Below, in pieces: positions 4,901-59,142 of a DNA stretch of 64,000 nucleotides (positions are counted from its first letter, which is position 1; every line of letters starts with the position of its first letter). The notes below the pieces were generated by a model that ran no database searches, was not told the DNA's origin, and saw nothing but the letters and a program-made list of their open reading frames with translations. The DNA comes from a phage: the sequence record PX880101.1, one strand, 5' to 3'. The position numbers and the translations under genes are program-made.

Positions 4901-6646
4901 ATGGCGCAAGACATGACAAGCTTCGAGCAGGCGGTAGATCAAGTAATTGTTGATTCTGAACGTTTGCACTTGATTGTCAACGGTAACGCTGTGGATGAAG
5001 TTGTCGTAGAGGATGGGACCACTATCCCTACGGTACGAAAAGCCATGCTTGACACCCTTTATTTTAAAACGCCACCAATCCCTTGGGCGTATGGTGCATC
5101 CACAACAGTTTTTAACCAGTTGTATGAGTTTAAAGGGGATACAGGCACTCAGTGGTGGTACGCCCCAGCAGCATCAAAATCTAACCCGGTTAGGATGCCA
5201 GCAGATCCTTCACAATCTCCGAACTGGAGATTATATACCGATTCTGCAGTAATGGCAAAATACTACGCAAAACTTAACAGTCCAAGGTTCGAAGGTGACC
5301 CGAGAGTACCTACACCTCCAATGGACGATAAGTCCGAATCTATAGCAAACACAGAGTTTGTTGTTGACTATGTGGATAGCATATTTAAAGCCATGGAGGG
5401 GATGAAAGTTACTGTAGGATCTTTGGTGGTAAAAGGTCTTACAGAACTTGCCAACACCATAGTTGGGGGCACCCTTACCTTACACGGACCTGTTAATGGA
5501 GCAGATTCTACTGCACGCTTCAGGAACCTAATCCTTACGGCAAATACTTCTACACTAACTTTTGCGTGGAGCGATCCTAAGCATGCAGACTGGAGAAGCA
5601 CAGAGCTGCAACCTCATGAAGTATCAACTCACAGAGTTATAGCTGACACTATAACTTCTGGGAAACCAGTGGCTAATAACAACGATGTGCATTTTGATGG
5701 TCTAGGTAATAACTTTTTTGACTACGTGTACATTCGTGGTAATGCCATGAAGGCAGCCACCGAACCGACATTGCAGGTTGATGGGACCACCAGGGTTAAG
5801 AACCTTGAGGTGACAGGCACCGTTACAGGGATAACCTACTCTGTAGATGGCACCATGATCTACCCTAGCTATATTGAAAGCACGGGAGATGCACTGATCA
5901 ATGGAGATTTAGAGGTTGGTGGATCTATAGTCATTCGTGGCACAGCATCTGTCCAGAACATATCTTTAAATACTCTGAGGGTGAATGAGCGTGCCACTTT
6001 TGAAGGAGAGGGGCTTACAGCCAACAAAGGTGTAATTACCGAGCTGACAACCACCACTCTAACTGCAACAACTGCAAACTCTGAAAACTGCAACGTTACC
6101 AGAAACTTGCAGGTAAATGGAGATGTTAGTTTAAACGCAGCAGGGACGGGCACCACCTACCTTCACAACCTTGAAATATCAGGTACAGTGACTGGGTGGC
6201 TGCCAGACTTCTCTAATGTCAACTTTGTCTGTAATGGCATTAACTCCAGTGGCAAGATAACCACCTCTCAAGAAATTGAAGCTGGTAAAACTATTACTGC
6301 CCCTGCTTTCCATGCAGGGAAGGTGGAGTTTGACTTAGAGGAGGCTGACGCATCTAGTGGGACATGGACACCTAACGGGCAGGCCAATATGTATGTTGTC
6401 CACGCGAAAGGGGATTTTACAATAGGGCAATGGCCTGGAACATCGGCTGAAGATAAACCTTACCCGTTCACTGCAATCATCTATGTCATTCAAGATGCTG
6501 TAGGCCACAACGTGACTTTACACGATAAATATGCCATACTGTCGGCTACTCCTGTTATTAACAACAAAGCCAACAGTGTCACCTTGCTACAATTGACATA
6601 TTGTGGTGTTGGTGATATTGTGGATGTGGTTATTGCACAACGTTAA
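4901..6646 (+). CDS. tail fibre protein
   Basis: RBS aaggag; N-terminal SPRFEGDPRVPTPP…SESIANTEFV resembles the conserved tail-fibre N-terminal attachment motif (PTAPT…TQIATTAFV); repetitive Thr/Gly/Asn-rich shaft. Confidence 0.6.
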   Translation: MAQDMTSFEQAVDQVIVDSERLHLIVNGNAVDEVVVEDGTTIPTVRKAMLDTLYFKTPPIPWAYGASTTVFNQLYEFKGDTGTQWWYAPAASKSNPVRMPADPSQSPNWRLYTDSAVMAKYYAKLNSPRFEGDPRVPTPPMDDKSESIANTEFVVDYVDSIFKAMEGMKVTVGSLVVKGLTELANTIVGGTLTLHGPVNGADSTARFRNLILTANTSTLTFAWSDPKHADWRSTELQPHEVSTHRVIADTITSGKPVANNNDVHFDGLGNNFFDYVYIRGNAMKAATEPTLQVDGTTRVKNLEVTGTVTGITYSVDGTMIYPSYIESTGDALINGDLEVGGSIVIRGTASVQNISLNTLRVNERATFEGEGLTANKGVITELTTTTLTATTANSENCNVTRNLQVNGDVSLNAAGTGTTYLHNLEISGTVTGWLPDFSNVNFVCNGINSSGKITTSQEIEAGKTITAPAFHAGKVEFDLEEADASSGTWTPNGQANMYVVHAKGDFTIGQWPGTSAEDKPYPFTAIIYVIQDAVGHNVTLHDKYAILSATPVINNKANSVTLLQLTYCGVGDIVDVVIAQR

Positions 6647-6655
6647 TATATCTGA

Positions 6656-6680
6656 CCGCTCCTGACGGGGCGGTTTTCTT
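6656..6680 (+). terminator. intrinsic terminator-like hairpin between fibre gene and giant gene
   Basis: ccgctcc-tgac-ggggcgg stem-loop followed by ttttctt. Confidence 0.45.
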
Positions 6681-6694
6681 ATCTGGAGAACACA

Positions 6695-9600
6695 ATGCTT
6701 CCAATCCCTTTGCTAAAACTTGGTCGTCATTTCCTCGATAAGAGGGGTGGAGTTAAGGAACTTGCTGTTCTGTCATACCCAATAGACAACAGTGACGGTA
6801 CAAGCACTACAGTAGCTTATGTAAATAGCTTAGCTATACTTTTTGACGACGGTCAGCTTAATATTACTGGCTATAACAAGTTCGGGGAGTGTCGCACTGG
6901 GGATCGTAACCCTATAAACTACCCGAGCGAGACGGCCTGGAATGTTGATCATGTGTGGAGAGCAGACCGTGCGTTTGTGATCCGGACTTTTGATAACCAG
7001 TTTTTCTACATCGGCTGCACTGCAGGTCTTATCGGATCCACTGCGGCAGGTGGTAACGATGTTTGCGTAAACGAGTGGACACCTCTTCCGGAACAGATTG
7101 TTAAAGGGTTACACCTTGACACGCACCCAGAGCGCCTTGTTGAGGTGATGGGGGGTATTAACAACACTGTTTGGGTTATTGCAGAGGCAGAAGGCACTGG
7201 CATACTGAACCTGTATGGATCTGGTAACAACACCTACGGATCTTTGCATGTAGATAAAAACCAGCATGCAACTCCTGTAAAGATTGGTGAAACATCGGAA
7301 AATCCTGAAACAGGTCCTTGGAAAAACCCAAGCATTAACTGTGAGGTGCATGATAACTCTGTTATTTTCGGTGGTCCTAGAGGTTTCTGGATTGCTGGGT
7401 ACGACTTTCTGAGAAACAATAGTAGAAACACTCTCGTTTGGCCTCCTGCTCAGATTACCCGTGACGATTTGAGAGGAATTCCTGCAGATGAGGAGTGGAA
7501 AGGGTTCATGTGCGGTCCGAATGGGGCAGTGGTTGCAACACAAAGAATGCACAGACCTGATGACCAACAACTTGTTAACGTATTTTATGGTCAAAACGTT
7601 TGGGGAGATGATACCTGGCGTGCTTTGAATATAACCTACACCCATGAGGTGATAATGGCTCGTGGGTACGGCACAAGTGGCATTTTCTTCAACAATGGTA
7701 CTAAGCAGTATCGTGGCTTCTCTCGAAACCTGTGCAACGATATTGGCGCACAATCTGCAAACAATAACCCCCGTGCCGATTTTGTTCATTACCAGGCCCT
7801 TGCTACGGCTAAATATGTTGAGCAACGTTTGCCAGTTAGCTGGACAGAGAGTGTTTATTTCCAAGGCATCCATAGAGAAGGTTTTTTAGGGACCTTTACT
7901 GTTGTTAATGGTAAACTTTGGTGGTCAGGTATCCCAAGGGGAAGTTTTGCAGGCTCTAATAACCTGTTTGGCGGCAGACTTAATAGTCAAGGGTTCACAG
8001 AGGTTCCTGAGAATTGGTATAAAAATGTCCCAGTAGATAGTTGGGGTGTTGATGATATTTTTGACGTTAACGGTGTTAGCAGCGTTAGCAATATTTACAT
8101 TGGTGACACGGTCAAGATGAAATTGAAGCCTCAGCCAGAGGGGGCTACGTTCATTATTGACAAGATTGAGCTGGTAAATGCTGCGGGTACGGTTGTTACA
8201 GATGCAAATTACCAATTCTCCACCAACTGGAACCACGGCGGGGCCAACGAAGTTGTTGTTACTCAGTATAACAGGAATGTTAACAGACGTGGCCTGTACT
8301 CTGTAAAAATAACCTATCATGACAAGCATGGCACAGGAAGAACTCACACGACAAGGACTTTGAACTGGAACACCATAGTTCCTGCGTATCCTTCTGACGG
8401 TAAGTGGCATACCGTTGGTAGAAACAAGCAGTTCCATGTTAACGATACTGTATACTTCGGGCTGAATGGGACTCAGCCTGCGGTAGAAGGAGATACATCG
8501 TATATGGTCCGACTCCACAGAATGGATGCTGGATCAGTCACCTATGATGTTACCCAAGAGATTTATGATCAGAGACGAAATACCTACAACAACTTAGTGC
8601 AGACACAGGCCGTATGGGAGTTCAACCCTAACGGCAGAGGCGGTAAAATGTTGCAGGTTAACGAGCAAAACGGAACGTCGTTGACTGTCCACGAACACCC
8701 AGACCCTTGGCCTGATCCTGGAAAACCTCACCCAGGTGCTCGTACACTGAAAATTGTCAGCCATGATGCAGGATATTTCGGAATACGCTGGGAAGCCACA
8801 GTAAGATATGCCGACGGGACAACAAACAACATAGGGATTACACTTGGAGGCACTAGTGAAGATAGCTCTCTGAAAATTGCCTACACTCCTAGAGGTATTT
8901 CTATTGATAATATGGATGTTGTTCGCAACGGTTACGGGGATGTGAACATCAAAGTTACTCTTGGTGAACATCTTGGCGGGGAAAGGATCATCATGTACGC
9001 CTTTGATCACGACCCACGCACTGACGGAACCTATGCAGACCAAGCGTGGAGCTACCTGATAAGCGCACCTGAGCCAAATACCAAAGAATTCTACTACGGT
9101 ATGAAACGGGATGTGTGCAAGAAAACAGGGACACATGACTGGATTGCAATCTGCGTTAAAGATGAACGTACCGCTTGGGACGAGCCTGTTAACAGATGGT
9201 TCATAGGAATTCCCACTCGAAGTGATAAATACGTTGAAGAATATATTGTATGCATGGGCGGCACCAACCTCAACATGTGTTGGAACGAGGATGCAAACAA
9301 ATACTCTGATTACGATTATATGAGGGATTACTCTTGCAATCAATGGTTTAACCAAACCGGGTATGCTAATCGACAGTCAAGAGTAAACCCTGCAATCTTT
9401 ACAGATACGCAGGTTTTCTTGACAAAACAGGCCAACGAGGTTCAGACCTTCAAGAACAAATACGACCCTAACAAGTGGTTTTATAACTGTTATGGCGCAT
9501 TTTTCTGGGGGCCAGGGGAACTGCCTAACGGGGGATCTTGCTTCGAGGCTGCAACTTACGCCAGTGATTACATCATGGGGCAGGTTAAGAAGTATAAGAT

Positions 9601-32930: not shown

Positions 32931-35360
32931 ATGAGCATGTGGTCGTTCGATTTTGAGTCATCCGGTTTGCTGGAAGACCCAGATCTTTATTATCACTGCG
33001 GTCTGTTTAAAGAGCTGAATAAGAACCGTTTTATGCTGTTCCTTCCTCTAAATGACCGCACACACTACTCCGAGGAGGATATAGAAAAGGCTAAGAACTT
33101 CATTCTGGCAAAGAAAACTCTTTATAAAGATTTTGAAGTTCGCATAGCAGATTTTTCGGAGTTGGAAGGTTGGCTTACAGGCAATTCCGACTGGTCACCA
33201 ACAGCTTTGAACTGCCATAACTGCTACAGTTATGACTTTATGCTGATGGAGAGATTGTCCGGTATTCATTTTGATATGTTCCGTGATCCTAAATGCATGG
33301 GGACTATCAACGACCACCAGGTTAACCTGTTTGATACGTTGGCGATGAGCCGAATTTTGTGGCCTGATCGCCCTCTACCAAAAGGTTGTCCGGACGCTGT
33401 ATTCAACCCGGTTACTAAGAAAATGCAGCCTGTTGGTCCTCACGGCCTTATGGCATGGGGCTACGCCCTTGGTAACCAGAAAGTTCAAATTGATGACTGG
33501 CGCGATCTTCCGTTGTGGAAGTATGTGGATCGTGTATTCGAGGACGTTATCATCCAGGAGCTGCTCTGGAAAGAGCTGGTAGCGGAATCAAAAGGTGTAT
33601 TCTACGGCAAATCTGACATGCAGAACTTTATGTACGATCCTGCCAAAGAGAAGCCGAAAGGGTTCAAGAAGATCACCTGGAAGAACGCATTACGCCGGGG
33701 TATGCTGCAGCACTTCCTGATGGAGCTGCAGGCCCGTCAGGGTGTATATTTCGACATAGATGGAGCTATTGCTTTACGTGACCGTTGTGATGCGTGGATG
33801 AAAGAGATCGCTGATCGTGTTGAACCTCAACTTCCTTTAAAAGAGTTGTCAATGTCTCAGCGGCCCAAGTTCCCTGAAAAGCCGTTTAACCAAGATGGGA
33901 CAATCTCCAATAATGGTTGGAAATGGTTAAAAGATAAGCTTGGCTATCCTGTGGACATGAGCGCTTTAGAGTTCAAAGCCCCACCTAAGCGAGCATTTAC
34001 CTCCACAGGGGATGTCAGTAAGATGGGGATAAAATGGTGTGAAGAGATGGGCTGTAAAGACCCTGATAAGATGGCTGATTTCTTGAGGGGCTATATTAAG
34101 GGCACCTCCACACCACAACCTTTACCTAAAGAGCTAATGGATCAGGCAATAAGTGATCTACAGCAGAAGCGAATGCCTGACTGCAAGATACCTATGAAAA
34201 TCAGCAATCAGGACGACATTAAGCGATACCTGATCAGTGCTGGTTGGCTTCCGACAATGTGGAGAACTAAGGATGTAACTAAAGACAGCAAGAAGAAAGC
34301 TCTACCTGATGCAGATGTTGATGCACGAGTATATGCATATATGGACGAGCTTTTAGAGTCAGAGTATTGTGACCTGATTATCAACTTCTGGAACAAAACT
34401 GATGCTAAGTTCCAGACAACCGTGCACAAGTTCCGAAGCTTTCCTAACTCCGAAAGGATTAAAAAGGAAGTATTCGGGAAAATACGTAGAAAAGCCAGGG
34501 CACTTATTACTTCTCCGCAACTGAAAGATACGTTTGGACACCTATGTCCGAATCTTGAAAAATTGAACGGAGAGATGGCTAAAGATATCGTCTTGTGGTT
34601 ATCCTTGCGAAACCGCAGATCGGTCCTTGATCCAATCAAGGAGGATAAGGTTGATACTGGTCTTCTTAATCACCCACGTTTGAAGATTGACCATAAGCTT
34701 CCTGCTAAAAGTTCTGGATTAACAAACACTTCCCGACAGAAACACAGTATTTGTGCGAACATGCCTAAACCATCTCCTAAAGTGGTTATGGGTAAAGAGA
34801 TGCGTAGTCTGTGGGGTGTTCCTCCAGGATACTTTGAGATTGGTATTGACGGGTCCAACTTAGAGCAGCTTATCGGGGCTTGGGGTGCCTTTGAGTTCGA
34901 CAACGGCTTGTATTATGATGTTGTAAGTAACGGGGACGCACACCAAAACAATGCTGAGGCATATACAAAAGTAGCAGGTAGAGAGGTGTCTCGTAACGAC
35001 GGTAAACCTATCACGTATGGGGTTATGTATGGGGCACAAAAAGATAAAGTTGCAGATATGCTGGACATCTCTCCAGAGTTGGGACAAAGGGTAATCGATG
35101 CACTCTGGGATGCCAACCCAGGTCTTAAGGGGCGCAAAGAGGATCTGGAGAAATTCTGGGAAGCAACAGGTAAGAAGTTTATCTACTCTTTTGATGGTCA
35201 TGCTATCTGGACCCGATCTAAACACTCTTTACTTAATGCATACCAACAAAATGGCGGTGCATCGTTGTGTGACTTAGTTGGAATACTCATGCACCACCAG
35301 ATGGTGAAGCGTGGGTGGTACGATGAAGGTGTTCGTCGTATTATTTATTACCATAAATAA
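32931..35360 (+). CDS. family-A DNA polymerase, 5' exon with 3'-5' exonuclease and polymerase motifs A and B (inferred splice donor after 35354)
   Basis: Exo I FDFESSGL; motif A IGIDGSNLEQL; O-helix region RNDGKPITYGVMYG; the ORF stops at …RRIIYYHK* exactly where motif C (HDE) should follow. Confidence 0.75.
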   Translation: MSMWSFDFESSGLLEDPDLYYHCGLFKELNKNRFMLFLPLNDRTHYSEEDIEKAKNFILAKKTLYKDFEVRIADFSELEGWLTGNSDWSPTALNCHNCYSYDFMLMERLSGIHFDMFRDPKCMGTINDHQVNLFDTLAMSRILWPDRPLPKGCPDAVFNPVTKKMQPVGPHGLMAWGYALGNQKVQIDDWRDLPLWKYVDRVFEDVIIQELLWKELVAESKGVFYGKSDMQNFMYDPAKEKPKGFKKITWKNALRRGMLQHFLMELQARQGVYFDIDGAIALRDRCDAWMKEIADRVEPQLPLKELSMSQRPKFPEKPFNQDGTISNNGWKWLKDKLGYPVDMSALEFKAPPKRAFTSTGDVSKMGIKWCEEMGCKDPDKMADFLRGYIKGTSTPQPLPKELMDQAISDLQQKRMPDCKIPMKISNQDDIKRYLISAGWLPTMWRTKDVTKDSKKKALPDADVDARVYAYMDELLESEYCDLIINFWNKTDAKFQTTVHKFRSFPNSERIKKEVFGKIRRKARALITSPQLKDTFGHLCPNLEKLNGEMAKDIVLWLSLRNRRSVLDPIKEDKVDTGLLNHPRLKIDHKLPAKSSGLTNTSRQKHSICANMPKPSPKVVMGKEMRSLWGVPPGYFEIGIDGSNLEQLIGAWGAFEFDNGLYYDVVSNGDAHQNNAEAYTKVAGREVSRNDGKPITYGVMYGAQKDKVADMLDISPELGQRVIDALWDANPGLKGRKEDLEKFWEATGKKFIYSFDGHAIWTRSKHSLLNAYQQNGGASLCDLVGILMHHQMVKRGWYDEGVRRIIYYHK

Positions 35361-35630
35361 CATTGTGGCTTCATAGAGTAATCTATGTCGAATAACCTCT
35401 TTAACTGCGGGAAGCCTAAACCTTATGGCAAGGTAATCCGCAACGAAGCGCTCAAAAGAGCGAACGCTCAGAGGCCATTCCGAAAGGAAGTAGACCAGCA
35501 AGTGCGGTCGAAATGGGAGGATTCCTGTGGTTGCTTATCATAGGAATATGAGATGGTCCGATCCTACGTGAAAACGTATGGCTATGCACGTAAAGGTGCG
35601 GGGTAGCTTAACGACCTACCTGAACTATTG
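35355..35630 (+). ncRNA. group I self-splicing intron (276 nt, no internal ORF) within the DNA polymerase gene
   Basis: 5' exon ends in U (35354), intron ends in G (35630); guide sequence CAUU|GUGG (35361-35368) pairs with both exon ends; P-like CUGCGGGAAG (35405-14), Q-like AAUCCGCAACG (35435-45), P7 GACCA (35493-97) with UGGUC (35554-58); splicing restores …YYH-DEYQLQV…. Confidence 0.7.
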
Positions 35631-35984
35631 GATGAGTACCAACTTCAAGTCCCTGACACACCGAAGTATAAGACTGTGTACACCTTCGACACAATCGAAG
35701 AACTGGAAGCATTTAAGGCAGAGCAGGAGGCCAAACTTCATGTGTTCGACGGTCATAAGTACAAAAAGGCACGCAAGGATGAGGACGGAAACGAAGTGGT
35801 TGACAGAGACGGAAACACGGTGTACGATCCTATCCTGAATGATGACGGAAAGCTTGAACTTATCTGGAGCCCTGTGGGTGAAATGGTGGTGCATTGCTTC
35901 TGGCAAGCTTCTAAAATGATGGGCGTCCCGTTCCAGATCACAGGTGAATACTTGTGTGGTCGTAATTGGGGTGATTGTCACTAA
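35628..35984 (+). CDS. family-A DNA polymerase, 3' exon with motif C and C-terminus (coding sequence inferred to begin at 35631)
   Basis: Begins DEYQLQV (motif C HDE after joining to exon 1) and ends …GRNWGDCH, resembling the T7 DNA polymerase C-terminus …GPNWAICH. Confidence 0.7.
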   Translation: MDEYQLQVPDTPKYKTVYTFDTIEELEAFKAEQEAKLHVFDGHKYKKARKDEDGNEVVDRDGNTVYDPILNDDGKLELIWSPVGEMVVHCFWQASKMMGVPFQITGEYLCGRNWGDCH

Positions 35985-45148: not shown

Positions 45149-45216
45149 AATTTATTAAATGCGAGGAGTTCTCATTTAGAATTTTGAATGATAATCATTC
45201 TCGTTTGCAGAATAAC

Positions 45217-45258: not shown

Positions 45259-45356
45259 TTGTTATTATAGTATCACACAGGACAAAGAAAGCAAGGATTT
45301 TTTGCATAAATTTTTAAATGATAATGATAACCGTTCTCATTTTATGCAGCGCCCAT

Positions 45357-55862: not shown

Positions 55863-56282
55863 ATGAACATTAAATCTAATAATCCGGCATATAGCTTTGA
55901 TAACGCTTTTTGTCACGGTCCGGCGGCGAAAGGATTCGAAATCGATGGTAAACTAATTATTGTCAATGTTGACGGGGAAGAGGTTGCAGTATATCCGGTG
56001 GCAGACGTAAAAAGCCGTTTACAATGCCGCATTGATGTTACCGCCTATCAGCTTGATCCGGTCCGCATAGTTGCCCTGGTCCTGGAAGAAGAAATTAAAG
56101 CCATGCACCATAGCAACAGATTTATTGGTGACGCGCAGGATAATATGAAAGTATGCCGCCATAAAGTTAATGAAGTGCTTAAAGAGTACGGCTATAAAGA
56201 TCTTATGATCAAACGTGAGGAAAAATTCCGCTACCGTAACGACCTGGCAAATCGAATCTATGAAATATACGAATCATTATAA
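55863..56282 (+). CDS. hypothetical protein, last gene of the rightward early array
   Basis: 139-aa ORF, RBS aagaggtaa; followed by a terminator. Confidence 0.55.
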   Translation: MNIKSNNPAYSFDNAFCHGPAAKGFEIDGKLIIVNVDGEEVAVYPVADVKSRLQCRIDVTAYQLDPVRIVALVLEEEIKAMHHSNRFIGDAQDNMKVCRHKVNEVLKEYGYKDLMIKREEKFRYRNDLANRIYEIYESL

Positions 56283-56300
56283 TTTCTTAACTAAACTATC

Positions 56301-56328
56301 AGGGGCTTTAAAAGGCCCCTTTCTTTTT
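56301..56328 (+). terminator. intrinsic terminator closing the early array
   Basis: aggggc-tttaaaag-gcccct followed by ttcttttt. Confidence 0.65.
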
Positions 56329-58805
56329 GTCTGTATTTCTCCTACCACAAACGGCCCAGCCTGGCAAGTGGAATAATTGACTAGCCATCAATCCCACACA
56401 CTGTACAAATATACATGGAAAATAACTATTGCATAATTTTTCATTGTGTGGTAGCAAGTCCATTTTTACCCGTTTTCTCTCTCAAAATTGCACGTAATGC
56501 CGCTATTGCACAAATTTTAACCTGATGCACATCTCCAATATCTTGTCAACAACTAAAAATCTTTATAAGTCATACACTTACACAGCATCGAAAGCGTGTT
56601 CTACGCGAAAAATCGAGTATAACTATAGCCGCCAGATCTCAGAATTCACGTACGCACGCCATTCTATAGCCTGCAAAGTATTTATTCCAACCACAGAATA
56701 ACGGAATAGTCAATACCTGCATAAAATAATTATTCGTGTAAACTGCATAACATAAATCAGCTCAGGTGTCAACATTTTTCGTAAACAGTCCGAAATTATC
56801 ACGATGAGTTATCATAAACAGAGAAATCTTTAGTCGTCTAATGTTTACTGTACATTACTATACTGACTGGAATCATTAGATGACTAAGAGAAAGATAAGA
56901 AATAATTAATAATGTAATTATTTTACCTGTAACAATAAGGCAACTATGCAAACGAATGGCATGGCGCGACGGAGTCGCGACATAATATAAAAGCAGTAAC
57001 CATCACCCCCGTGATAGTTTGTCTGCAATCTATTAATCAGATCATAGTTGCCTTGTATTCAGTTAATCATGACATAATAAGCAAGGCAACTATAGATCTG
57101 CTAATAGTTGCCCTGCTTTTATATTATGTCATAGAAACACCCGAAGGGGTGACCAAAGGTCACCTGGCATGGCCAGTGAAAGATTATTAACTTGTTAATT
57201 GTTAACTTGCTAATTGTTTTCATGCAAACGAATGTCATGGCTTATCCTATCTGTGTAAACAGTTAAGGTGTAAACTATCCAGGCGTAAACAGTCTATGCG
57301 GGAACAATCTATACGTGAACAGTGAAACATGAAATAATAACAATCGTTATTGTGTCGAAAGTGTATAAGGTGTCATAGTATGTCAGACAAGTTTTTCTCC
57401 TCTTTGTCAAGTGCTGCATGAAAATTTACAAACTGGTATGGTAGCATTTTTGCGGCCCTGTTTACATTCAGTTGTGTATGTATAACCCTTGTTGTGTGGG
57501 CGTTTAGACGTCTGGACGGTTGGAAGTCTACAGGTCAATATCTAATCTATTGGCTGCTAACTATATCCCACACAAATAGTAAGAAATACAATTGTTATGT
57601 GAGTAAACGGTAACTCATGTTATCAATCCCTGTATGGATCGCCAGTGGTGCGCATAATGGGTATTATGTTAAATTGCCCGTAATGATAACTATTCTCACA
57701 ATGATAGGTATTCTCATTCACTCCCACAAGATAGGTTGCAAATGTTGTGCCACTGTGTGAACGGCCTCACCTATTAATTTGCCTCACTGCCTCGATATTT
57801 GAGAATTGTTATAAGAATGAGAAGTATTCCCATTTCGTCCGCCTGGCAGCACTCCAGTCGCTACCGCTCATGACAGGGCAGAACTGGGTCCATTCAGATA
57901 TTTCTGGCTGACTCTTCAGGTCTGTGTGGGAAAAGCCAACCTCTCCGGCGGGGCAGGGGTAGGTCAATTAAAAAATTTACGTGGTGTATGAAGAGCCCTT
58001 CAGGTAAGGCATGTATTATGGGATGAAACACCCTTCAGGCAATGATATTTGTGGGTGGGATATTTGCTGGAAAGCCAGATATGACGGGACTCCTGGCGGG
58101 GCAGGGGTAGTACAGACAGGGGAAATATGGTGGATGTAGTTGGGTGGATTGATCAGGCAGGTAGAGTATGGAATATGTTACAAGTATGTTAAATATGGAG
58201 GATGAATATCTGTAGGATTTGTGTGTAAAATCAAAGACTTAAGTGGTGTTGTGGTATTTTCTATAAATAATTCAAGTTTAATAGGTAATATTTGTCTCTA
58301 TCCGCTTTGTGTGGTAAACAAATTCAGATGGTGTTGGTTTACAAGTGTATACATAATATACAAATTAAAGATACAAGAAACCCCCCTCCCCCTTCGGCTA
58401 CCATTCACCTTTTCCTCTGACTGGTACTTAAACACTTATTCAGACTCTTCAGGTTATCACCCATATATCATATGGCAGTGACTGGTGTCCTCCGGCCCCT
58501 CTTTCGTCACCCGTCCGCTTCGCCATGCTAATGCCATAGCCAACGGTTCGGTTGTTCACCCTGTTCACTCAGGTGTATCTCCATACCCCTTCAAACCGAA
58601 GAGAACAGAAAACCCGAATTACTCGGTAAAAGAAAAGAGAAGAACTTAATTTTATCAGGATAGGCAAGAATGTCAAGGCATGACTGCTCACTAAACAAGC
58701 AAACAGTCATGTGTGGAAGGTAAGTGATTGTGGTGGTAGGAAATTTAGTTGAAAGATGTGTTATAGGTGCGCTTCCAGCACTTTAGCCGGGCAGCTAATT
58801 GTGTG
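56329..58805. other. 2.5-kb ORF-free, repeat-dense region between convergent gene blocks
   Basis: No ORF with an RBS. 18-bp inverted repeat gacataatataaaagcag (56979-56996 and 57113-57130); hairpins cgcgac-gga-gtcgcg (56965) and ggtgacc-aaa-ggtcacc (57148); direct repeats atgcaaacgaatgNcatggc (56946, 57231); gtaaacagt-like iterons (57252-57325); ctggcggggcaggggtag twice (57935, 58093). Confidence 0.5.
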
Positions 58806-59021
58806 TCAGTCCAGCGGTTCATCCTCTACTTCACTGAAATCAATGTTCATGGTCTCTTCCCAACCATCGATCTCAGCACAAGAGTGGAGTTCTTTAGGGT
58901 TTACTCCCAAAGCCTCAGCAACAGAGTCTATATTTAACACCTCTGGCAGGTATGATTCATCGAATTCAAGGTAAATCAGGCCACGAGTGTTGTCAGCTCC
59001 ACCAAATATTTCTATCTTCAT
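58806..59021 (-). CDS. small acidic hypothetical protein
   Basis: 71-aa ORF; last gene of the leftward array. Confidence 0.45.
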   Translation of the reverse strand: MKIEIFGGADNTRGLIYLEFDESYLPEVLNIDSVAEALGVNPKELHSCAEIDGWEETMNIDFSEVEDEPLD

Positions 59022-59142
59022 AAAATCTCCTCTGGAAATGAGAGTGTGAACAGGGTTTTATACGTTCTAATGCACAGGAATTATACACGTTTTCCTCTTC
59101 AGGCCATGCTTTAGCATGAGGAACCTGTGTGGGCTCGGTGCT

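Follow-up and report, generated by a model that had tools for sequence, protein, structure and literature searches.

In this article, I discuss a region of about 2.5 kb that lacks genes in the genome of a phage (sequence record PX880101.1) and that very probably holds the place where the chromosome of this phage begins and ends. The window referred to throughout is the whole stretch of this genome that was analysed, 64,000 nucleotides read on one strand from 5' to 3', and within it the region in question (56283-58805) extends from the stop codon of a + strand gene (55863..56282) to the stop codon of a - strand gene (58806..59021), with which the leftward block of genes ends. The original prediction, made by a model from the letters of the window, had described some 2.5 kb without an open reading frame (ORF) at the point where a rightward and a leftward gene block converge, and on both counts the description was accurate: a strong terminator closes the rightward block (annotated at the same position in Murica, phAPEC8, HdK5 and Schickermooser), and the longest ORF between the two flanking stop codons encodes 86 amino acids (aa) from a GTG start. 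Hidden small genes were considered and rejected, since none of the 56 ORFs of at least 20 aa carries a signature of purifying selection in a 17-genome alignment, where non-synonymous changes equal or outnumber synonymous ones in all but a single 22-aa ORF (15 vs 14) and many of the 56 are frameshifted in relatives.

The region has matches in 122 phage records at 80-99% identity, all of them Vequintavirus, the rV5-like Escherichia coli myophages, to which the phage of the window belongs, with phage A6-1 as the best match (98.8% identity), and the well-curated relatives AlexBoehm, LL12 and rV5 have no coding sequence annotated in it. In passing, about 19 GenBank records of the MG0656xx series carry the name "Campylobacter phage" (host C. 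jejuni), but their sequences belong to Vequintavirus or Phapecoctavirus and share 90-96% identity with E. coli phages; the labels are probably wrong or due to contamination.

The same locus, about 89-95% identical to the present region in BLAST segments, was marked "non-coding" in the rV5 paper at rV5 coordinates 104013-106618, with no function proposed; bidirectional terminators were expected between rV5 genes 163 and 164 and none was found, and the genome ends were not determined (Kropinski et al., 2013; PMC3606486). Merrill (2016) does not cover rV5, and a literature search returned no transcriptome, origin mapping or non-coding RNA (ncRNA) work for Vequintavirus. The covariance-model scan that the original prediction had proposed was run against Rfam 15 and gave no match in the region at gathering score (the best E-values, 0.12-4.5, belong to hits well short of the threshold and of no biological relevance); ARAGORN likewise placed no tRNA or tmRNA gene there, in agreement with the original prediction, in which no tRNA-like T-arm consensus had been seen.

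Across 17 diverse genomes, column identity is about 0.9-1.0 over the region vs 0.78-0.88 in the protein gene to its left, and because the region is more conserved than this gene it is not a neutral spacer; the exceptions are two hypervariable, indel-rich stretches (57113-57412 and 57855-57912). Conservation in related phages, whose absence would have counted against the original prediction, is thus strong. In a second lineage, represented in metagenomes and IMG/VR (L004, L026, L028 and others), the conserved patches are collinear with those of the window and the elements follow one another in the same order; it is the only additional lineage that scans of metagenomes and IMG/VR yielded for the study of covariation. 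I regard it as confirmed that the ORF-free, repeat-dense region is real, non-coding and under strong constraint.

Terminal repeat and probable genome ends

The centre of the region corresponds, by homology and from the literature, to the 458-bp sequence with which virion DNA of this genus both begins and ends. Korf et al. (2019; PMC6563267) reported 458-bp terminal redundancies for HdK5 and EdH4, and the ends of these two phages and of Schickermooser were placed where most reads stopped abruptly. In the HdK5 record (MK373780.1) the first 459 nt equal the last 459 nt and map to window positions 57386-57843 (458 bp), and the EdH4 record (MK327930.1) matches at both of its ends, so that for these congeneric records the same sequence stands at both virion DNA ends, and the phage of the window would, by homology, carry the same direct terminal repeat (DTR).

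The boundaries read gtca/GACAAGTTTTTCTCC on the left and CATTTCGTCCGCC/tggcagc on the right (the slash marking the edge of the repeat), and both hardly vary among the 17 aligned genomes, which is what sequence-specific cutting would predict. Hypervariable stretches lie immediately outside the two boundaries of the repeat, which is itself conserved, and the conservation of its last 58 bp extends to the distant relatives L004, L026 and, more weakly, L028, where it again stops at the boundary. Furthermore, several GenBank records begin or stop inside the region at two recurring points, with Pr121LW and ECP2303 opened at 57386 and ECP2309 and the bov phages at 57843, where a tandem duplication in CM1 ends too; the breakpoints recur at the same two bases, and at one end they do so in opposite record orientations.

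From this evidence, together with the Phapecoctavirus terminal repeat, the inverted repeat and the GTRAACAR sites described below, I consider it highly likely that the ORF-free region represents the genome terminus (concatemer junction) of a phage whose packaged, unit-length DNA carries a short exact direct repeat at each end. The repeat lies between the converging blocks, and therefore both gene blocks are transcribed towards the chromosome ends; on the map of virion DNA, the elements from the terminator to the iteron array precede the right-end copy of the repeat, and the dispersed repeats and the ultra-conserved block follow the left-end copy. A packaging site or terminal-repeat boundary had been the first candidate of the original prediction, which was right in that the region holds the DTR and missed in that the repeats it highlighted (56946-57325) are not the termini themselves and lie 60-440 bp inboard of the right-end copy.

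Several points weigh against this reading. The ends of the window's own phage are taken from relatives that are about 93-95% identical over the repeat, some of the coincident record starts may be re-orientations to HdK5 and not independent observations, and two papers, relying on PhageTerm, describe the genomes of Vequintavirus as circularly permuted or headful. Also, the roles that I give below to the inverted repeat, the iterons, the promoter and the ultra-conserved block are proposals, and FV3 lacks the inverted-repeat module and V18 the iterons, and therefore neither is strictly essential.

The Shigella phage CM1 (L011) has an internal tandem duplication equivalent to window 57371-57843, with its right edge at 57843, which looks like a terminal repeat kept twice after a permuted assembly; phage I29 (L020) has an unexplained tandem duplication of window 57627-58170 with a short inverted piece. 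The repeat_region features of the Danish records were considered as the repeat and set aside, as they mark merely a 34-36-nt tandem motif within the DTR. Inside the DTR, the near-palindromic motif AATGATAAnTATTCTCA occurs three times (57682-57698, 57700-57716 and 57816-57832); it is a close match to the E. coli Fur box TGATAATnATTATCA, with 1-3 mismatches, Fur-box-like motifs number 18 in the window vs 5.4 expected by chance, and other sites of this type lie at 45189-45203 and 45319-45339 of the window, at L007 6483 and 6662 and at L023 254-270. The motif is conserved in L004 and in the Phapecoctavirus DTR.

Conserved elements around the repeat

From left to right, the region holds the terminator, a conserved block (56330-56945), the inverted-repeat module, the iteron array, the terminal repeat, the dispersed repeats and the ultra-conserved block (Table 1).

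Table 1. Features of the ORF-free region, in window coordinates, with inverted-repeat arms of related lineages.
Feature	Position	Strand	Remarks
Rho-independent terminator closing the rightward block	56301..56320	+	AGGGGCTTTAAAAGGCCCCT then T-run
Conserved non-coding patch	56504..56652	+	69% identical and collinear in distant relative L004
ATAGTTGCC / GGCAACTAT copies	56939, 57044, 57085, 57104		
Inverted-repeat module	56946..57241	.	Bounded by 20-nt direct repeats ATGCAAACGAATGNCATGGC, 56946-56965 and 57222-57241
GC hairpin	56966-56978		Inside inverted-repeat module
18-bp perfect inverted repeat	56979-56996 / 57113-57130		Inside module
Inverted-repeat arm, this window (Vequintavirus)			GACATAATATAAAAGCAG
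Inverted-repeat arm, L004/L028 lineage			GACATAATAACGCTGAG
Inverted-repeat arm, A7_1			GACACTATAAAACGAG
Inverted-repeat arm, Phapecoctavirus			GCTAATAATAAGCCA
Hairpin with CCCC loop	56998-57019		Inside module
Optional 52-nt triple-hairpin cassette	57131-57182		Hairpin at 57141-57179
TTAAYTTG run	57187-57216		
GTRAACAGT-like array	57255..57323	+	Five units, 15-bp period
RTGTCA repeats	57352-57385		Abut repeat boundary
Homolog of 458-bp DTR	57386..57843	.	From HdK5 ends and literature
Region just inside left end	57844..58362	+	Hypervariable indel stretch (57855-57900), then conserved dispersed repeats
Dispersed repeats	57909; 57988, 58023; 57947, 58095		GACTCTTCAGGTCTGTGTGG; ATGAAnnnCCCTTCAGG; GGCGGGGCAGGGGTAG, respectively
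Ultra-conserved block with orphan sigma-70 promoter	58363..58712	-	
G5AG6 run on transcript strand	58392-58381	-	About 250 nt downstream of promoter
GTGAACA unit pair	58552-58568		
Hairpin and U-run	58626-58614	-	About 20 nt downstream of promoter
Orphan promoter	58676-58671; 58654-58649	-	-35 TTGACA; TGn-extended -10 TAAAAT

All of the repeats listed in the original prediction are present, including the reiterated ATAGTTGCC / GGCAACTAT motifs, the two strong hairpins (the GC hairpin and that of the cassette), the TTAAYTTG run and the gtaaacagt-like iterons, with small slips of coordinate at some: the second copy of the direct repeat ATGCAAACGAATGNCATGGC starts at 57222 and not at 57231, and GGCGGGGCAGGGGTAG does have two exact copies, with the predicted position 57935 about 10 nt off. 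The predicted 18-bp inverted repeat is exact (18/18) and longer than any found in 200 dinucleotide-preserving shuffles (maximum 13, mean 9.6); the longest exact direct repeat, at 16 nt, is marginally beyond the shuffle maximum of 15.

Four lineages possess a perfect inverted repeat of 15-18 bp that encloses 73-129 nt and whose arm sequences differ from lineage to lineage, and in L004 the stem of the CCCC-loop hairpin is changed on both sides. Because both arms change together in the four lineages, and because of the double changes in the CCCC hairpin stem, there is good evidence that the pairing itself is under selection, in DNA or in RNA. In the two lineages with a known boundary, the inverted repeat lies inboard of the right DTR copy by 256 bp (here) and 209 bp (Schickermooser). 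The FV3 record has the module deleted exactly between the flanking direct repeats, and unless that record is an artefact the module is not strictly essential.

The 52-nt triple-hairpin cassette occurs in some Vequintavirus genomes only, and in L028 it lies inside the inverted repeat. It is the only match of the region to host sequences, being 88% identical to an intergenic stretch (L041 1501-1552, NZ_CP035869.1) of circular 13.6-13.7-kb E. coli "plasmids"; these encode a major capsid protein and may be a satellite or small phage-like element.

The iteron block is hypervariable (35-49% column identity), with 0 to about 10 copies in relatives and none in the V18 record, and a GTRAACAGT-like motif stands at the same place in the L004/L028 lineage. 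The shorter form GTRAACAR is concentrated around the junction: 9 of its 20 sites in the window lie in 56781-59053, and no shuffle of the window reached the total of 20. To the left of the repeat its copies form the + strand iterons, and to the right, within the ultra-conserved block, they form an inverted pair that does not vary; from this placement I infer that a DNA-binding protein, for which the small terminase is a candidate, may recognise the junction from either side. Among the dispersed repeats inside the left end, two patches (58023-58132 and 58176-58285) are conserved in distant relatives.

The ultra-conserved block has 99-100% column identity in the 17 genomes and is 96-100% identical in 119 records. 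It carries the only strong promoter of the region, TTGACA-16-TGATAAAAT (11/12 plus TG), and in the second lineage this promoter reads TTGCAA-17-TGCTATAAT (-10 TATAAT); kept through changes in both hexamers, its function as a promoter has been preserved. Downstream of it, the hairpin that precedes the U-run has three of its four pairs changed on both sides in the second lineage, and the G-run is found there at the same distance (G5-6TAG5 vs G5AG6). A further promoter-like sequence, TTGTCA-15 nt-TATAAG at 56543-56569, is directed at the right genome end and kept in L004; it is a candidate promoter with a suboptimal 15-nt spacer.

Two other motifs were tried as promoter elements and dropped. TGTGTGG / CCACACA is several-fold enriched, with 8 of the 32 copies in the window (both strands) in or beside the region (56445-59126); the copies outside lie within genes and lack a consistent context. 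One copy is part of a conserved GACTCTTCAGGnCnGTGTGTGG element that is present in L004 too. CTTCAGG has inconsistent spacing to -10-like elements. In the metagenomic relative L004, an ORF is inserted in the non-coding terminus region (7777-8485), and by eye its DNA reads as encoding what may be an HNH-endonuclease-like motif.

As to the neighbouring genes, the proteins on either side match no Pfam family and are placed in PHROGs of unknown function. The 139-aa protein encoded by 55863-56282 (+) belongs to phrog_12277, and its versions in Vequintavirus, Phapecoctavirus and Septuagintavirus share 85-90% identity; in genomes that have it, its gene is the last before the right genome end, and FV3 and VB-EcoM-WM lack it. 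In Phapecoctavirus and Septuagintavirus, the homologous gene is likewise followed by a terminator and then by an ORF-free or ORF-poor region of 1.5-2.2 kb.

Alternative explanations

A conserved promoter with no gene behind it, and a G-run kept at the same distance from it in both lineages, could also be read as parts of a replication origin, either of the iteron type (the GTRAACAGT array together with AT-rich DNA) or primed by transcription, in which case RNA started at the promoter (58676->58649) would form an R-loop at G5AG6 and prime the family-A DNA polymerase that the phage encodes, by analogy with ColE1 or with mitochondrial LSP/CSBII. The five regularly spaced iterons, the lowest GC content of the window (0.377), the presence in the region of three of the window's six paired G-run motifs and the three perfect DnaA boxes inside the DTR-equivalent region of the L004/L028 relatives all point in this direction. 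These tandem boxes (TGTGGATAA; L004 6860-6890 and L028 1003-1046) occur only in that lineage, however, and no DnaA box with one mismatch or fewer exists in 56283-58805; nor does an initiator gene adjoin the region, whose flanking proteins are of unknown function, so that neither of the two marks of an iteron origin, an adjacent initiator or host DnaA boxes, was found. The array itself, where local GC is 0.38-0.41, is hypervariable, ranging from about 10 units to none at all in V18, the region holds no canonical G-quadruplex motif, and the changes in skew of rV5 were ascribed by its authors to switches in the direction of transcription (PMC3606486). I therefore regard an origin here as unlikely, although such a function is compatible with the explanation of the region as a genome terminus.

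As an observation on the polymerase, the 809-aa ORF 32931-35360 matches Pfam DNA_pol_A and a group I intron (RF00028, 64.7 bits) lies at 35345-35580 (+); because it sits at the 3' end of this ORF, the intron appears to split the family-A DNA polymerase gene, of which exon 2 is probably 35628-35984. In rV5, introns were described in the terminase gene and not in the polymerase (PMC3606486).

The same promoter could instead serve a new structured ncRNA transcribed by the host RNA polymerase from 58363-58645 (-) and possibly also from the inverted-repeat module. An RNAalifold consensus fold has 39 pairs, of which 10 show changes in both partners, with 99% of cells paired, vs 37-45% paired and 0-1 double-changed pairs in a slid-partner control; the - strand folds better than the + strand (consensus -26.8 vs -19.2 kcal/mol; single sequences -90 vs -57 kcal/mol), and the closing helix uses G-U pairs that are possible on the - strand only. 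However, with just two lineages each double change amounts to one event, the structure was predicted from the very alignment on which it was then assessed, and the opposite strand gives a similar count (11 of 35 pairs double-changed). The single-sequence z-score of the block is only -1.65, no Rfam family matches it, the literature search returned no Vequintavirus transcriptome in which such an RNA could be sought, and the near-total invariance within each lineage fits a signal at the level of DNA at least as well. An RNA from this block is, in my view, unlikely.

Headful packaging with permuted ends would reduce the region to no more than a pac site or a spacer prone to recombination, and the 458-bp redundancy to an assembly artefact. 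It is very unlikely, since the two reports in which PhageTerm returned "circular permutated" and "headful (PAC)" drew on Nextera XT libraries in one case and on Ion Torrent reads of a phage cocktail in the other, and transposase libraries lose termini according to the PhageTerm authors, whereas the abrupt read ends of HdK5, EdH4 and Schickermooser, the recurring breakpoints, at one end in opposite record orientations, and the sharp change of conservation at both DTR boundaries indicate otherwise. Set against this conflicting literature, the evidence from record ends favours what would be fixed ends.

A proposed route to mature ends

If the region is a genome terminus with a short DTR, its elements can be placed in a scheme of end maturation. 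Replicating concatemers would contain one copy of the repeat between adjacent genomes, the terminase would recognise fixed sites at or near the two boundaries, and strand-displacement synthesis starting at staggered nicks would then supply the second copy of the repeat, as happens in T7 and T3 (for the general DTR mechanism, see the PhageTerm paper). Cis-acting signals for this processing would reside in the conserved non-coding DNA to either side: the GTRAACAR units flanking the repeat could bind protein, the inverted repeat with its covarying arms, which lies 256 bp inboard of the right-end copy, could form a hairpin or cruciform, and the orphan host-type promoter would fire towards the repeat. 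Going beyond the DTR, I suggest tentatively, as something that is possible but not probable, that the ultra-conserved block is a new structured phage RNA or an R-loop origin at the left end, and that the inverted repeat and GTRAACAR belong to a T7-like end maturation that depends on the host RNA polymerase.

Significance and comparison with known systems

Of the approximately 120 Vequintavirus records, most are opened at an arbitrary point, and the genus is described as headful or permuted in some papers; placing the DTR in the non-coding box gives the correct chromosome map and a common starting point for annotation of a group that is widely used in phage therapy and biocontrol. For phage engineers, it shows which DNA must stay for packaging, and the constrained inverted repeat, GTRAACAR and the promoter with its ultra-conserved block provide targets for work on end maturation or replication.

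The closest known case is that of HdK5 and EdH4, which belong to the same genus and share the homologous 458-bp repeat, the boundary sequences and a non-coding region between the same two genes. The core of the finding, the DTR, is thus largely already explained for the genus (Korf et al., 2019), and the gap had been noted in 2013; however, that paper (PMC6563267) devotes one sentence to the matter and says nothing of the inverted repeat and iterons beside the DTR, nor of the orphan promoter and the ultra-conserved block, and the residual novelty is in these uncharacterised, strongly constrained elements around the repeat.

T7 and T3, with exact DTRs of 160 and 231 bp that are generated from concatemers (PhageTerm paper), resemble the phage of the window in having short exact repeats at fixed positions. 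They differ from it in that they are 40-kb podoviruses and it is a myovirus of 135-140 kb without a phage RNA polymerase, whose orphan promoter is of the host sigma-70 type, whose repeat is three times longer and without sequence similarity to theirs, and whose flanking gene blocks both run towards the ends. In T7, arrays of short repeats abut the terminal repeat on both sides (SRL and SRR) and orphan promoters lie near both ends (phiOL and phiOR), and Chung, Nardone and Hinkle are said to have described, in 1990, a hairpin intermediate of T7 that forms at an inverted repeat lying inboard of the right genome end. By analogy, the likeness of the arrays, promoters and inverted repeat discussed here to those of T7 offers a lead.

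Phapecoctavirus provides a comparison outside the genus that supports the terminus reading. Nothing alignable beyond short motifs was found with the non-coding regions of phAPEC8 (5513-7021) and A7_1, and, unlike in the window, the genes that follow the repeat in Phapecoctavirus are directed away from the end and there is no equivalent of the ultra-conserved block. Nevertheless, Schickermooser has a DTR of 328-329 bp in a positionally equivalent non-coding region, and about 10 further listed Phapecoctavirus records end or start at the same point. The ORF-free stretch that holds this DTR measures 1.5 kb and comes directly after the terminator of the 139-aa gene homolog, the DTR has a perfect inverted repeat inboard of it, and it contains the AATGATAAnTATTCTCA motif, as here; its left boundary is similar to that of Vequintavirus (AGCAAGTTCT vs GACAAGTTTT). 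The arrangement of the terminus is older than the genus.

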